Assembly (NCBI GenBank): GCA_964570045.1
Contig: CAZMWZ010000010.1
Coordinates: forward strand, 1 to 31,307
DNA length: 31,307 bases
Direction of reading: 5' to 3'
From: an uncultured Spirochaetaceae bacterium
Lineage (GTDB): Bacteria > Spirochaetota > Spirochaetia > SZUA-6 > DRHE01
The notes beneath the pieces are model-generated. The model was given only the letters and a program-made list of their open reading frames with translations, was not told the DNA's origin and made no database searches. This document shows, piece after piece, positions 104 through 20,029 of this stretch (its first letter is position 1; each line of letters opens with the position of its first letter). A program made the translations under genes and the position numbers.

Positions 104-1129
104 TTGGAATACCGTTATCTGGGCACGACCGGGCTTAAAATTTCCGCCATCTCCCTCGGCGCGCAGACGTTCGGCTGGAACACCGGCAAGGAGGAGGCCT
201 GGGCCATCCTCGACCGCTACCGCGAGAGCGGCGGCAACTACATCGACGTCGCCGACTCCTACAACGACGGGGAGTCGGAGCGGATCGTCGGCGCCTGGAT
301 GCAGGAGCGGGGCGCCCGCCGGGAGATGCTGGTTGGGACCAAGGTGTTTTTCCCGACGGGGGCCGGCCCGAACGACTCGGGCCTGAGCCGCCGGCACATC
401 CTCGACTCGGTCGACGAGAGCCTGAAACGGCTGCGCACGGACTGGATCGACCTGTACCAGCTCCACTGCTTCGACCGCATGACCCCCCTGGAGGACACCC
501 TGCGGACGCTGGACCGCCTTGTCGGCAGCGGCCGGGTGCGCTACGCCGGCACCTCGAACTTCACCCCTTCCCAACTGCAGAAGGGGCTGATGATCTGCCG
601 TCGGGATGGGCTGGTGGGCTTCTCGACGCTGCAGCTGGAGTACAGCCTGCTCGTGCGCAGCCCCGAGTGGGAGCTGCTCCCGCTGTGCCGGGAGGAGGGG
701 GTGGGCACGCTGGCCTGGTCGCCGCTGGCCGGCGGCTGGCTCACCGGCAAATACCACCGTGGGGCGGAGCTGCCTGCCGACAGCCGGGCAGGGCGTGGGG
801 ACCGCTGGGACGATGCGGCCGAACAGCGCGGCGGGGAGGGGACCTGGCGGATCGTCGAGGAGCTGGCCCGCATCGCCGGGGAGAGCGACCGGCGTCCCGC
901 GCAGGTGGCGCTCAACTGGCTGCTGCACAGGGGCGAGGTCAGCTGCCTCATCACCGGCGCCCGGACGGTGGGGCAGCTGCAGGAGAACCTGGGTTCACTC
1001 GGTTGGGCGCTATCAGCTGAGGAGCTTGAACGGCTGGACCGGGTGAGCGCCGTGGAGGAGCCGTACCCCTACAGCTTCATCAACCGTTATACGCGCCGGG
1101 CCGCGGCCCGAAAAAAGGAGCTATCATGA
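104..1129 (+). CDS. aldo/keto reductase (NADP-dependent, Tas/YajO-like)
   Basis: N-terminal YRYLGTTGLKISAISLG, catalytic D..Y (DVADSY), K (GTKV), DLYQLH, AWSPLAGGWLTGKY. TTG start. Confidence 0.93.
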   Translation: MEYRYLGTTGLKISAISLGAQTFGWNTGKEEAWAILDRYRESGGNYIDVADSYNDGESERIVGAWMQERGARREMLVGTKVFFPTGAGPNDSGLSRRHILDSVDESLKRLRTDWIDLYQLHCFDRMTPLEDTLRTLDRLVGSGRVRYAGTSNFTPSQLQKGLMICRRDGLVGFSTLQLEYSLLVRSPEWELLPLCREEGVGTLAWSPLAGGWLTGKYHRGAELPADSRAGRGDRWDDAAEQRGGEGTWRIVEELARIAGESDRRPAQVALNWLLHRGEVSCLITGARTVGQLQENLGSLGWALSAEELERLDRVSAVEEPYPYSFINRYTRRAAARKKELS

Positions 1130-1617
1130 CCACGATCCGCACGAGCGCATGGGATCCAGCCGGCGGCGAGTACGCCCGGCTGATCCTCCCATCCGGGTGC
1201 CCGAAACCGGAAGCCGGCGGGCAGGACTACAGCTACCATCAAGTGCTCGGCCCCCGGGAGCTGGGGGAAGCAGGCATCATGGCCGAGCTGATCTGCCGGA
1301 AGCGGCCCCTCGTCCTCGGCACGCTAGAAAGGCACCTCGCCACCCCCGAAGTCCTAGCCGCGCTGGACGGGGACGTGATCGTCTGCGCGGCAGCGCCGGG
1401 GGTCGACCCCGCCCGCTGCAGGCCCTCGGACATCCGCGCGCTCCCGCTGCGGCGGGGACAGGCCTTGTGGCTGGACAAGGGCGCCTGGCACTGGCTTCCC
1501 TTCCCGACCCGGACAGCGCAGGTCACCCTGCTGCTCATCTTCCGCGAGGGGACGGGCGACCGCGACATCGAGTTCCGGGAGCTAGCGCAGCCCGTCGGCA
1601 TCGAAGCCGCCGGCTGA
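1126..1617 (+). CDS. ureidoglycolate lyase-like cupin protein
   Basis: LERH and GAWH motifs of the AllA/ureidoglycolate lyase family. ATGA overlap with the AKR stop and AAGGAG SD. Confidence 0.7.
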   Translation: MTTIRTSAWDPAGGEYARLILPSGCPKPEAGGQDYSYHQVLGPRELGEAGIMAELICRKRPLVLGTLERHLATPEVLAALDGDVIVCAAAPGVDPARCRPSDIRALPLRRGQALWLDKGAWHWLPFPTRTAQVTLLLIFREGTGDRDIEFRELAQPVGIEAAG

Positions 1618-1708
1618 CGGAAGCGATTCGGCCGCGCTGATCGCGCCGCCAGGCCTCGCGCCGGCTCCGCTACTGCGGCAGCGAGGCGCTTCGGCATCCC
1701 TGCCTTGA

Positions 1709-1737
1709 TTGACCCGAAGGGATGCCGGCACTACACT
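1709..1737 (+). promoter_or_regulatory. sigma70-type promoter of nagA (TTGACC-N17-TACACT), leaderless geometry
   Basis: -35 at 1709-1714, -10 at 1732-1737, ATG 1744 six nt downstream, no SD. Confidence 0.65.
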
Positions 1738-1743
1738 CCCGGT

Positions 1744-2922
1744 ATGCCCGACCGCCTGCGCATCACCCGCTGCCGGATCCTCACCCCCTTCGTGGACTTC
1801 CCTGACGGCGAGGTGGTGTTCGAGGAGGACCGGATCAGCGGGGTGGGCCCGGCGGGGGAGGGAGAGGCGGCGGCCGCGACGACCCTCGACGCCGAGGGGC
1901 GGGTAGCCATCCCCGGCCTGATCGACGTGCACCTGCAGGGCGCCGGCGGCTGCGACGTGCTGGACGGCACGCCGCAGGCCATGGACACCATCGCCCGCAC
2001 CTGCGCCGGGCACGGGGTCACCGGCTTCCTGGCGACCACCGTGTACCGGCCGGGGGGCGACAACCGCCACCTGCCGGTCGCCGCCGCGGCCTGCCGACCG
2101 GAGCGGCAGCCCCCGGATGGTGCGGACTGCCTGGGCATCCATCTGGAGGGCCCGTTCATCGCCCCCGAAAAGCGGGGTATGATCCAACCGGATTGCCTGG
2201 GCCCGGTGCGGGAGGAGGCGCTGACCGAGCTCCTGCGCCTGTGCGGCGGGGCGCTGCGCATGATGACCCTCGCCCCGGAGCTTCCCGGCGCCCTGGAGAT
2301 GGTCCGCCGCCTGGCGGCGCAGCGCGTCGTGGCCTCCTTCGGGCATTCCGCGGCGAATTATGTGCAGACCGTGGCGGGCCTGAAGGCGGGCATCCGCCAC
2401 GCCACGCATCTCTGGAACGCCATGTCCCCCCTGCACCACCGGGAGCCGGGTCCCGTGCCCGCGCTGCTGGAGCGCCGCGACGTCACGCTGCAGGTCATCC
2501 CCGACGGCGTGCACCTGCACCCTGCCATCCTGCGCCTGCTGGCCGGGCTTCTGGGCCCGGAGCGGGTCGTGCTGATCACCGACGGCCTGCAGGCCCTGGG
2601 ACTGGAAGACGGCCGCTATACCTACAACCGCCAGCCCATCGTGGTGAGCGGCGGCACGGCGCGCTCCCTGGACGGGACGCTGGTCGGCACCACCCTCAGC
2701 ATGAACCGGCTCATCCAGCGCTACCAGGGCTTCACCGGCTGCGCGCTGGCCGCGGCGGTGCGGGCCGCCTCCTTCAACCCGGCCTGCGTGCTGGGCATCC
2801 AGAAGCGCACGGGCAGCCTGGAGAGCGGCAAGAGCGCGGACCTGGCGCTGCTCAACCCCGATTTCACGGTCTGGAAGACCTGGAAGAAGGGGCGCCTGAT
2901 CTACGAGCAGCCCGCGGCGTGA
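1744..2922 (+). CDS. nagA: N-acetylglucosamine-6-phosphate deacetylase family amidohydrolase
   Basis: PGLIDVHLQG, HLEGPF, GHS, THLWNAM, LITDG, G..GS motifs. Start placed at ATG 1744 (MPDRLRIT) from the promoter geometry rather than TTG 1705. Confidence 0.88.
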   Translation: MPDRLRITRCRILTPFVDFPDGEVVFEEDRISGVGPAGEGEAAAATTLDAEGRVAIPGLIDVHLQGAGGCDVLDGTPQAMDTIARTCAGHGVTGFLATTVYRPGGDNRHLPVAAAACRPERQPPDGADCLGIHLEGPFIAPEKRGMIQPDCLGPVREEALTELLRLCGGALRMMTLAPELPGALEMVRRLAAQRVVASFGHSAANYVQTVAGLKAGIRHATHLWNAMSPLHHREPGPVPALLERRDVTLQVIPDGVHLHPAILRLLAGLLGPERVVLITDGLQALGLEDGRYTYNRQPIVVSGGTARSLDGTLVGTTLSMNRLIQRYQGFTGCALAAAVRAASFNPACVLGIQKRTGSLESGKSADLALLNPDFTVWKTWKKGRLIYEQPAA

Positions 2923-18186: not shown

Positions 18187-18835
18187 GCTGCTGCTCGTCC
18201 CCGCCGCCTACCTGTACGCCTCGATCAACTGGGCCATGCTGATCACCCGCTGGGTGGCGGGGAAAGACATCCGCCTGCTGGGCACCGGCAACCCGGGAAC
18301 CGCGAACGTCGGCCGGCACCTAGGCAAGGGGTGGGGCGCCCTGGTCTACTTCCTGGACATCTCTAAAAGCCTCCTCCCGCTGGCCGCCGGGAGACTCTGG
18401 CTTTTCCCCGCCGCCGGGCCCTGGGACTACGCGGCCCTGGCCTTCACTGGGATCGCGGCCATCGCGGGCCACTGCCGCTCGCTGTTCCTCGGCTTTCGCG
18501 GCGGCGGCGGCATCGCCACCTCCATGGGGGTGTTCCTTTTTTTCATCCCGGTGGAGTTCCTCGCCGCGGTACTCCTTAGTTTCGCCGCGGTCCTGGTGTT
18601 CCGCCGCCGCGTTCGCTACCCCCTGGGGCAGTGGACGCCCATCCTTTTCGTCTCCCTCACCCCCTTCCTGACCCTGGCGCTGAACTGGGCGGTCCAAGTA
18701 CCCCTGCGGGGGCGGGTCCGCCTCGGGGCTCACCCCTGGTGGGAGGTGGCGGGGACGTTCGCTTTTTCGTTCTTCGTCCTGGCCATGAACTGGCGCTTAC
18801 TGGCCCGCAAGCTTGACGGGAGCGAAGGAATATAG
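18179..18835 (+). CDS. plsY: glycerol-3-phosphate acyltransferase PlsY
   Basis: DIRLLGTGNPGTANVGR, LDISK, GHC...F.GGGGIATSMG; hydrophobic. The C-terminal His motif of PlsY was not clearly seen. Confidence 0.82.
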   Translation: MYKLLLVPAAYLYASINWAMLITRWVAGKDIRLLGTGNPGTANVGRHLGKGWGALVYFLDISKSLLPLAAGRLWLFPAAGPWDYAALAFTGIAAIAGHCRSLFLGFRGGGGIATSMGVFLFFIPVEFLAAVLLSFAAVLVFRRRVRYPLGQWTPILFVSLTPFLTLALNWAVQVPLRGRVRLGAHPWWEVAGTFAFSFFVLAMNWRLLARKLDGSEGI

Positions 18836-18866
18836 TAGAATCGCTATATTAAATATTTTGATTCTA
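18813..18866 (+). promoter_or_regulatory. sigma70 promoter (TTGACG-N17-TAGAAT) overlapped by dyad-symmetry elements
   Basis: -35 at 18813-18818, -10 at 18836-18841. Inverted repeats AATATAG(18829-35)/CTATATT(18844-50) and TAGAATC(18836-42)/GATTCTA(18860-66). Confidence 0.65.
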
Positions 18867-18881
18867 ACTGAGGAGGGCAAG

Positions 18882-19166
18882 GTGCGCTTCACCCAGAAGG
18901 CGCAAGCCGAGATCGTCGAGGTGCTCAAGGAGAACAGCGGCAAAGTCCTACGCGTGCTGTTCAAGGGCTATGGGTGAGGGGGGCCCAAGTTGGGCCTGGC
19001 TCTGGAAGAGCCAAACGACCAGGACGAGAGCCTAAGCATCGGCGGTATCGAGGTCCGCGTGGAAAAGCGAGCCGCCGGCTTCGCGGCGCAGAGCGTCGTG
19101 GACTACGTCGACTCCGTGTGGGGCAAGGGTTTCACCATCCGCCCCGCCCAGGCAGACTGCTGCTAG
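18882..19166 (+). CDS. HesB/IscA-like selenoprotein (in-frame UGA at codon 32), 94 aa
   Basis: GAGGAGG SD, GTG start: MRFTQKAQAEIVEVLKENSGKVLRVLFKGYG-U-GGPKLGLALEEPNDQDESLSIGGIEVRVEKRAAGFAAQSVVDYVDSVWGKGFTIRPAQADCC*. TGA at 18975-18977 sits in the G-U-GGP motif. Absent from the ORF track. Confidence 0.9.
18982..19012 (+). promoter_or_regulatory. candidate bacterial SECIS element
   Basis: Hairpins GGCCCA-AGT-TGGGCC (18982-18996) and GGCTCT-GGA-AGAGCC (18998-19012). The second has a G-starting apical loop 26 nt after the UGA. Confidence 0.65.
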
Positions 19167-20029
19167 ATTCGCGCGCGGCCGCCGGGGGTATACCGCTGCA
19201 GGAAGTCCAGGACCTGCTCCCGGTGGCCGCTTCTGCCCTGCGCCTGCCATTTCGCTAGAAACGAGGCGTAGCCGTGCTTCAGCAGGCTGCGCATGCTGTT
19301 CTGGGTGGGCTCCGGGAGGTCCCAGTCCCGAAACAGCCGGTCGATGAAATCCTCCACCACCTCCTGATCGTATTGCGGGAATAGGGCCGTCAGCAGGAAC
19401 AGGGTGGGGGCCACGTCGAGGATGGAGTGCTGCTTGACCAGCAGGACCGCTTCCGTGATTCTCACGGCCTCCGCTCTCACCACCGCGAACATCCGTTCGA
19501 ACTCCGCCCCTTGCCGCCTGTGGCGGCGCAGGATGCGGGCGGCGCTCAAGTGGTTGTAGCAGATCAGCAGGATGTGCAGGCTGGGGATGCAGTGCAGGTG
19601 CGGGTCCAGCAGGTAGATGACCGCGAAGTACGGGCGCATGGGCAGCGGGGCCCGCGTGGTCGTGGTCGACTGGCAGCGCCGGTAGATCGCCCCCGCCTCC
19701 CGGTACAACAGGCAAACCTCCTCCATGGACTCCCGGATGTCGGGAAGGCAGCCCCGGCCGATCTGGTCGTAGCAGAAGCGCAGGGTCTTGAACCAGAAGG
19801 TGATGTAGCCCAGGTAGGTGAACACCTCCTGGGGGCGGAAGGGGATGTCCCGGTCCAGCGGATGCGAAAGACTGGCCACCGGGCGCAGCCAGGGCATGAG
19901 CAGGCTCTGGAACTGGGGCAGGAAGAAGTGGTCCAGCGCGTGCCACAGGAGGGACAAGCTGCGTTTCAGCAGGCGCCAATCGCCGAGGAGCATACGGGCC
20001 GCTTGCGAGGAAGGGATGTCGTGGATCAT
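19163..20029 (-). CDS. uncharacterised protein with PAP2-superfamily-like catalytic motifs, 288 aa
   Basis: 3' part of ORF 19163..21130, starting MIHDIPSS by TGATG coupling. Motifs HCIPSLHI and LLVKQHSILDV resemble the PAP2 C2/C3 motifs. Confidence 0.65.
   Translation of the reverse strand: MIHDIPSSQAARMLLGDWRLLKRSLSLLWHALDHFFLPQFQSLLMPWLRPVASLSHPLDRDIPFRPQEVFTYLGYITFWFKTLRFCYDQIGRGCLPDIRESMEEVCLLYREAGAIYRRCQSTTTTRAPLPMRPYFAVIYLLDPHLHCIPSLHILLICYNHLSAARILRRHRRQGAEFERMFAVVRAEAVRITEAVLLVKQHSILDVAPTLFLLTALFPQYDQEVVEDFIDRLFRDWDLPEPTQNSMRSLLKHGYASFLAKWQAQGRSGHREQVLDFLQRYTPGGRARI

Follow-up and report, generated by a model that had tools for sequence, protein, structure and literature searches.

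A short-tail HesB/IscA-like selenoprotein gene, predicted from an in-frame UGA and a downstream hairpin, in an uncultured sediment Spirochaetota bacterium

Selenoproteins of the HesB-like type have been recognised since about 2004, and the family is reportedly included in the catalogues of Kryukov and Gladyshev and of Zhang et al. Its members, represented by the models NF038090 and TIGR01911, are small, single-domain proteins of about 95-100 residues, which carry selenocysteine (Sec) at the conserved Cys of the HesB domain. A survey of 2006 counted 11 HesB-like selenoproteins (PMC1794560), and in a survey of 2016 they were found in 86 organisms, which made them the sixth most common family (PMC5029168). 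The Sec motif of the family is UxGP (PMC13188914). In Methanococcus maripaludis, the HesB-like member has been confirmed by 75Se labelling; the function of these proteins is stated as unknown (PMC11097638), and a M. maripaludis disruption mutant showed no defect in nitrogen fixation (unpublished observation cited in PMC11097638). The one spirochaete selenoproteome given in the literature consulted, that of Treponema denticola, is without a HesB-like protein (PMC1794560), and no report of such a protein in Spirochaetota was found in the literature, of which our coverage was incomplete. Bacterial SECIS elements, which direct the insertion of Sec, are hairpins located in the coding region a short distance 3' of the UGA, with a G in a small apical loop (PMC1088965, PMC1794560).

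Here, we examine a locus in a stretch of 31,307 nucleotides (the window) from an uncultured sediment Spirochaetota bacterium. The locus at 18882-19166 is, with a probability of roughly 93%, one functional gene for a 94-residue HesB/IscA-fold selenoprotein, in which the UGA at codon 32 is read as Sec by means of a downstream hairpin. It is a real but ordinary selenoprotein of a known kind, and no new kind of system. The protein has its Sec at the same place as the HesB-like selenoproteins and is likewise small and of a single domain, and its motif, U-G-G-P, conforms to UxGP. With IscA, SufA and ErpA it shares the predicted fold, the position of the first ligand, a conserved Asp and a flexible, Cys-bearing C-terminal tail. 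It differs from these carriers in having Sec for Cys at the first ligand, and in the reduction of the C-G-C of the tail to one conserved Cys.

Reading frame, neighbouring genes and family

The frame starts with GTG at 18882 and stops with TAG at 19164-19166 (Table 1). It has 94 sense codons, counting one in-frame TGA that is its sole interruption; the residues around this codon are GYG-U-GGPKLGLALEEP, and the C-terminus is DCC. An earlier note, made from the letters of the sequence, had described this frame and its C-terminus, a promoter and a Shine-Dalgarno sequence upstream of it, and a hairpin GGCUCU-GGA-AGAGCC with its loop 26 nt past the UGA. All of these are present, the promoter as a predicted site. 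The promoter-like sequence matches the consensus at 10 of 12 positions, one site having been found against 0.0 expected in shuffled sequences, and it sits in an AT-rich island at the 3' end of plsY.

Table 1. Coordinates of the gene and of the signals in and around it
Feature	Position	Strand	Remarks
HesB/IscA-like selenoprotein gene	18882-19166	+	94 residues including Sec32; single domain across the TGA; orthologs collinear over all 94 codons
UGA Sec codon	18975-18977	+	codon 32; conserved TGA; TGC in Cys forms; aligns with the IscA Cys
SECIS core hairpin	18998-19012	+	stem GGCUC(U)/(A)GAGCC, apical loop (U)GGA(A); within the L-A-L-E-E-P codons
First hairpin, GGCCCA-AGU-UGGGCC	18981-18997	+	probably no conserved element
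Cys93-Cys94 codons, TGC TGC	19158-19163	+	only Cys94 conserved in the family
Shine-Dalgarno sequence, GGAGG	18872-18876	+	5 nt before the GTG; congeners have a purine-rich GGAGG/GGGGG at the same place
Sigma-70-type promoter-like site, TTGACG-17 nt-TAGAAT	18813-18841	+	consensus match only (predicted)

The neighbours of the gene are an acyl-CoA synthetase-like gene, a response regulator, plsY and a ParA-like ATPase. None of the adjacent genes is an Fe-S or selenium gene, and there is no isc, suf or nif operon at the locus; the gene stands outside such operons. The ParA-like neighbour was considered as an Mrp/ApbC carrier and rejected, since its 'NUBPL iron-transfer' Pfam match covers the P-loop only (4-43 of 246). 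In the metagenome contigs that carry homologs, the order is acyl-CoA synthetase-like gene, response regulator, plsY and selenoprotein gene, followed by convergent genes. The convergent gene in the window is a 296-aa ORF with no Pfam match, which is conserved in relatives; its stop and the TAG of the selenoprotein gene share the letters CTAG (19163-19166), and relatives show an overlap of as much as 29 nt between the two genes. Two overlapping terminator-like sites (a GC stem and a T-run) lie on the minus strand inside the selenoprotein coding sequence, at 19071-19088. They are probably due to chance in GC-rich DNA, and no gene ends there.

In model searches, where U was scored as C, the best NCBIfam matches of the protein were the two Sec-containing HesB subfamilies, NF038090 (5.4e-16) and TIGR01911 (1.4e-10), followed by general models of A-type carriers. 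The scores lie under the curated cut-offs (58.7 vs 85 for NF038090; 41.6 vs 66.35 for TIGR01911), and the Pfam model PF01521 (Fe-S_biosyn) gave 24.3 bits, below its gathering threshold of 26.3. The ortholog profile matches solved IscA-type proteins across the TGA (1nwb, 7.5e-12; also 2apn, 1s98, 1r94, 1x0g and 2d2a), with U32 aligned to the Cys of their GGCSG. An AlphaFold model has a mean pLDDT of 85.4, with the tail residues 92-94 disordered (pLDDT < 50). Its top structural matches are SufA (2d2a), IscA (1r94, 1s98 and 1x0g), HI1723 and Aq_1857, with TM scores of 0.66-0.74, and these proteins account for all of the top eight PDB matches, each with a probability of 1.00. The predicted fold is that of the A-type Fe-S carriers SufA and IscA. 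Since the domain models, the profile and the fold all extend across the TGA, one domain spans the stop codon. The HesB/IscA-like identity that had been proposed for the gene is thus upheld by the subfamily models and by the predicted fold, and so is the placement of Sec at the Cys position of A-type carriers, where it aligns with the invariant first Cys ligand.

In its SECIS and its LGLALD/EEP peptide, the window's gene does not differ from relatives that score above the NF038090 cut-off (L098, L081 and L073, with 109.7, 92.6 and 88.0 bits, respectively). Compared with the long-tail members of the HesB-like family, which end in C-x-x-C(-x-x-C), the tail is short and has one conserved Cys. The long-tail relatives with C-x-x-C-x-x-C reach 88-110 bits with NF038090 and pass, while members of the short-tail clade fall below the cut-off: 58.7 bits for the window, 71.6 for a sister genus and 68.7 for Geobacter. 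Because it scores below the curated cut-offs and is without the multi-Cys tail, the protein is filed here as a short-tail sister branch and not within NF038090 or TIGR01911. The family tree, which comes from a quick search over 101 columns and has many unresolved forks, is to be read only as a coarse grouping into short-tail, long-tail and Cys forms.

Conservation of the UGA codon and of the hairpin

TGA occupies codon 32 in all 20 Spirochaetota orthologs, the same codon in six metagenome loci (by alignment of the DNA), and the Sec position in 62 of 62 distinct Sec forms from many phyla. Among the genomes of 40 relatives, 13 from three genera have an ortholog with exactly one TGA, at identities down to 48%. 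Alignment with Cys-containing homologs, a check proposed in the earlier note, places TGC in the column of the Sec codon in the Cys forms (11 distinct sequences). In the six metagenome relatives, most changes in the 31 codons upstream of the TGA are synonymous, and synonymous changes are frequent in the 62 downstream codons, so both parts evolve as coding sequence. Where the window has its TAG, just past the final Cys codon, this gene ends in TGA in five of the six relatives whose alignment covers the stop. TGA is therefore an ordinary stop in this clade, and an internal TGA needs special decoding.

At 18975-18977, the DNA contigs of two independent studies contain no alternative letter (at the level of contigs, from which rare alleles may escape). 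Two metatranscriptome contigs, which are contigs and not proof of transcription, span the UGA unchanged, from 18884 to 19167 and from 18884 to 19063. The presence of the unchanged UGA in independent contigs removes sequencing error as a reading of this codon. A TGC or TGT in the reads had been named as something to look for, and neither occurs in any read-derived contig of two DNA and two RNA-library runs. The UGA is conserved, and selection maintains it. The assembly contigs of two DNA runs break at 18951-19004, and the summed depth rises from about 20 to about 62; such a tripling would be expected if the frozen Sec/SECIS segment were identical in several co-occurring sediment strains or species.

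The family was scanned in one genome per prokaryotic species with degenerate peptide patterns, which gave 79 loci. The hosts are Spirochaetota, Geobacter and other Desulfuromonadales, Bacillaceae, Deferribacterota, Ignavibacteriota, Zixiibacteriota and Myxococcota-labelled MAGs; among the carriers of a short-tail form are isolates of Geobacter/Desulfuromonas, Tepidibacillus and Neobacillus. Since the pattern was degenerate, the codons of L-A-L-D/E-E-P were not imposed by the search. In the 62 distinct Sec forms, these codons read xTG GCT CTG GAn GAG CC (in 62, 62, 62 and 61 sequences). The 11 distinct Cys forms, which come from three lineages (Desulfovibrionaceae/Mailhella, Desulfocapsaceae and Acidobacteriota), encode the same GLALDEP peptide with GCC/GCG, CTT/CTC and mostly GAA, by which the stem is destroyed. 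As the codons are frozen in the Sec forms and relaxed in the Cys forms, the hairpin that the earlier note had called SECIS-like is the SECIS of this family, and it is under RNA-level selection only in Sec forms. The contrast amounts to a clean natural experiment, with the LALD/EEP peptide and the SECIS superimposed on the same 15 nt.

A similar pattern is found within the 20 Spirochaetota orthologs, where synonymous sites are saturated across the gene. The codons CCC35, TTG37, GCT40, CTG41 and GAG43 are frozen, that is, five of the ten conserved degenerate codons among the first 12 after the UGA, against 0 of 34 elsewhere in the gene. The gene in the window has nine Ala codons, and GCT is used for Ala40 alone. 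The isolated 23-nt hairpin has a folding energy of -10 kcal/mol (z = -2.6), while segments of 59-71 nt are not more stable than shuffled sequences in their GC-rich context (z of -0.4 to -1.2). The folding energy of the longer segments being unremarkable, the significance of the hairpin rests on comparison and not on thermodynamics. No Rfam family matched at its gathering threshold, and relaxing E to 10 added only one chance match, to a lncRNA.

The conserved element is a 5-bp stem GGCUC/GAGCC whose apical loop, UGGAN, contains G. The window's genus has Glu in place of Asp42 (with the codon GAA in the window), so that a sixth pair, U-A, and a GGA triloop become possible; this is the form that had been noticed at the outset. 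The hairpin begins 20 nt past the UGA and its loop starts 25-26 nt after it, which falls inside the range of 16-37 nt published for bacterial SECIS elements. With SECIS elements of the Escherichia coli fdhF type it shares the position within the coding sequence, 3' of the UGA, and the G in a small loop; in contrast to them, its stem is very short (5-6 bp), and the overlap with a conserved peptide makes its sequence near-invariant across phyla. The hairpin is also unlike the SECIS-like structure in selD of the same genome, which has a longer stem and begins right after the UGA.

The first hairpin in Table 1 was rejected as a part of the SECIS, as its outer pairs can form in only some of the orthologs. 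All that the orthologs share is a CCC/GGG core, which the Pro and Gly codons dictate; CCC encodes this Pro in 45 of the 62 Sec forms, so that the codon is not frozen family-wide. The contigs of X2, X15 and X16 have C>T plus A>G at 19012-19013, which at face value would change Pro44 to Leu and the last pair of the stem to G-U. No relative retrieved for comparison has this variant, which may be a quirk of reporting or alignment.

Selenocysteine machinery and the decoding of the UGA

The assembly that contains the window (G000) is 95% complete, in 381 contigs. It has a tRNA-Sec (68 bits, above the Rfam cut-off; anticodon tca according to ARAGORN), which is directly adjoined by the 5' end of selA (residues 2-176), cut by the contig end; the two are found at G000:C275:1-659. 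SelB is represented by the winged-helix domains SelB-wing_2/3, with the N-terminus missing at a contig edge. SelD scores above the cut-off and carries Sec in its own active site, ACG-U-GAK (selD is on G000:C150, L010 about 1060-2097, minus strand). Given a Sec-containing SelD and the full machinery, UGA is decoded as Sec in at least one other gene of this organism. The earlier note had inferred such machinery from the gene and proposed a search of the genome for selA, selB, selC and selD; all four are recognisable in the assembly, with selA and selB truncated by contig ends. SelA is above the cut-off in nine of the 13 relatives that carry the TGA form, and the remaining four (68-94% complete) have a SelA fragment, a weak match or none. 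In four genomes of the same order (family f2), where the nearest homologs are of a Cys-type, ErpA-like kind, SelA was not found. In a search for GrdA, the controls gave no match.

Two other accounts of the TGA have to be weighed against its decoding as Sec. If it were a nonsense mutation, or an error of sequencing or assembly, the locus would be a pseudogene or two unrelated small ORFs; gene callers do give ORFs of 31 aa and 58 aa here, and the scores stay below the curated family cut-offs. However, the identity of the TGA across 62 distinct sequences, which represent many phyla, and across independent runs, the predominance of synonymous changes before it and their frequency after it, a single A-type carrier domain running across it and the TGC of the Cys forms at the same place already contradict this account, to which we assign a vanishingly small probability. 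Hardly more credible is the reading of the UGA as another amino acid, either Trp or Gly by a reassigned code, or Cys or Trp by near-cognate read-through. Some public predictions do have W at the site, but this is most simply explained as an artefact of gene calling with code 4. A reassignment is also hard to reconcile with the TGA that serves as the terminal stop of the same gene in five of six relatives, aligned with the TAG of the window, with the set of Sec genes and the UGA at the canonical Sec/Cys site of SelD, and with a hairpin that is kept only in TGA forms. The reading of UGA32 as Sec is therefore retained here.

For this reading, the following sequence of events would apply. Transcription would probably start from the gene's own predicted promoter. 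At UGA32, the hairpin GGCUC-UGGAN-GAGCC would recruit SelB with Sec-tRNA(Sec) to the ribosome, and Sec would be inserted in place of termination.

Standard ORF calling had been expected to miss or split the gene, and public predictions do split it. In a collection of 5.8 billion proteins, the close homologs are all fragments of about 54-74 aa, mostly of 58 aa; in the homolog contigs, a 31-aa ORF is followed by a 58-aa ORF in the same frame, and the 58-aa ORF carries the JGI label 'IscA'. Many database homologs of apparent full length (P0022, P0024, P0025, P0026 and others) read W at the Sec position, in GFGWGGP. These W residues most likely come from the translation of TGA by genetic code 4 during gene calling, and the entries would then be further hidden selenoproteins. 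Homologs are thus filed as 31- or 58-aa fragments, as 'IscA' fragments or as Trp-bearing proteins, and the selenoproteomes of sediment spirochaetes and of other hosts are under-counted as a consequence. The main practical value of the locus lies in annotation. The 14-nt codon-frozen SECIS, which is common to at least eight phyla, could be used as a family-specific tag to recover mis-called members, with the pattern TGA-N20-GGCTCTGGAYGAGCC.

Ligands and possible function

The ligands of the protein differ from those of canonical carriers at both ends. Nearly invariant in an alignment of 60 sequences are only C94 (in at least 90% of them) and R24, G29, G31, G34, P35, L41, D48 and D74. In the window's genus the protein ends in DCC or GCC, in the next one in GAC or GSC, in a third in GC, and in the Geobacter relatives in SSCC, AAC, SCS or SCA, so that position 93 is C, A, S or G in the sister genera. 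A ligand set of 'U...CC' had been put forward in the earlier note. The U and the last Cys are conserved as this would have it, but Cys93 is not (tails GAC, GSC and GC); what remains of the set is therefore 'U...C', to which Cys93 adds a dispensable thiol. Counted from the conserved Pro, C94 would sit at the first Cys of the C-G-C of IscA, and the second Cys has no counterpart. The three invariant Cys ligands of IscA (C ... C-G-C) are thus not found, the first being Sec and a C-x-C being absent, and in the absence of the second Cys of CGC the classical three-Cys cluster site cannot form.

The genome of the window was searched for other A-type carriers with TIGR00049, NF038090 and the protein itself as queries (PF01521 had missed even the window's gene, and was dropped as insensitive), and no other homolog was found. 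A search with TIGR00049 likewise gave no second homolog in four relatives, G020 (a single contig), G017, G013 and G007. SufB was not found in the window's genome, which has two genes of the NifU_N/IscU type. That the selenoprotein is the sole A-type-carrier homolog found in these five genomes suggests that it covers the carrier role.

The most likely role of the protein is a function like that of A-type carriers with Sec as a ligand. Sec32 would take the place of the first invariant cluster-ligand Cys of IscA and SufA, and Cys94, the only other conserved thiol, would lie on the flexible tail, roughly at the first Cys of the canonical CGC. A dimer, if the protein forms one, could then present two Sec and two Cys, by which iron or a [2Fe-2S]-type cluster might be bound or handed on.

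A serious rival to this carrier-like role, which we regard as possible but unlikely, is that the selenoprotein is no Fe-S carrier, and that Sec32 and Cys94 form a redox-active selenenylsulfide pair or act as a persulfide or selenide relay. Conservation extends to just two chalcogen residues, there is no canonical CGC motif, and the modelled flexible tail could bring Cys94 within reach of Sec. The IscA-fold protein DsrR (2k4z), which to our knowledge is not known as a cluster carrier, is among the structural matches. A review of 2026 considers most uncharacterised selenoproteins to be probably redox-functional (PMC13188914), which also counts for the rival. On the other hand, long-tail relatives that share the Sec motif and the SECIS have retained C-x-x-C-x-x-C or C-G-x-C tails, which resemble those of cluster-binding A-type carriers, the conserved Asp74 fits the D-x-x pattern of the family, and this protein is the only A-type-carrier homolog found in the five genomes named above.

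It is tempting to take the carrier-like role further. The short-tail Sec protein, being the only homolog found in the window's genome and in the single-contig genome G020, with no SufB and no other IscA/ErpA found in the former, might be the only A-type carrier of its lineage, with selenolate-ligated clusters and a selenium-dependent Fe-S maturation; or else it might have left Fe-S metabolism for Sec-Cys redox chemistry or a chalcogen relay. We hold this pair of proposals to be improbable as it stands. If the former were true, a sole A-type carrier homolog bearing Sec in several genomes would link the supply of selenium to Fe-S metabolism.

One congener, G002, has an additional, canonical Cys-type A-type carrier (G002:C69:14782-15099; 93.4 bits with TIGR00049) in a genome that is 83% complete with 4% contamination. 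The extra carrier may reflect a genuine difference between the genomes, an assembly gap or contamination.
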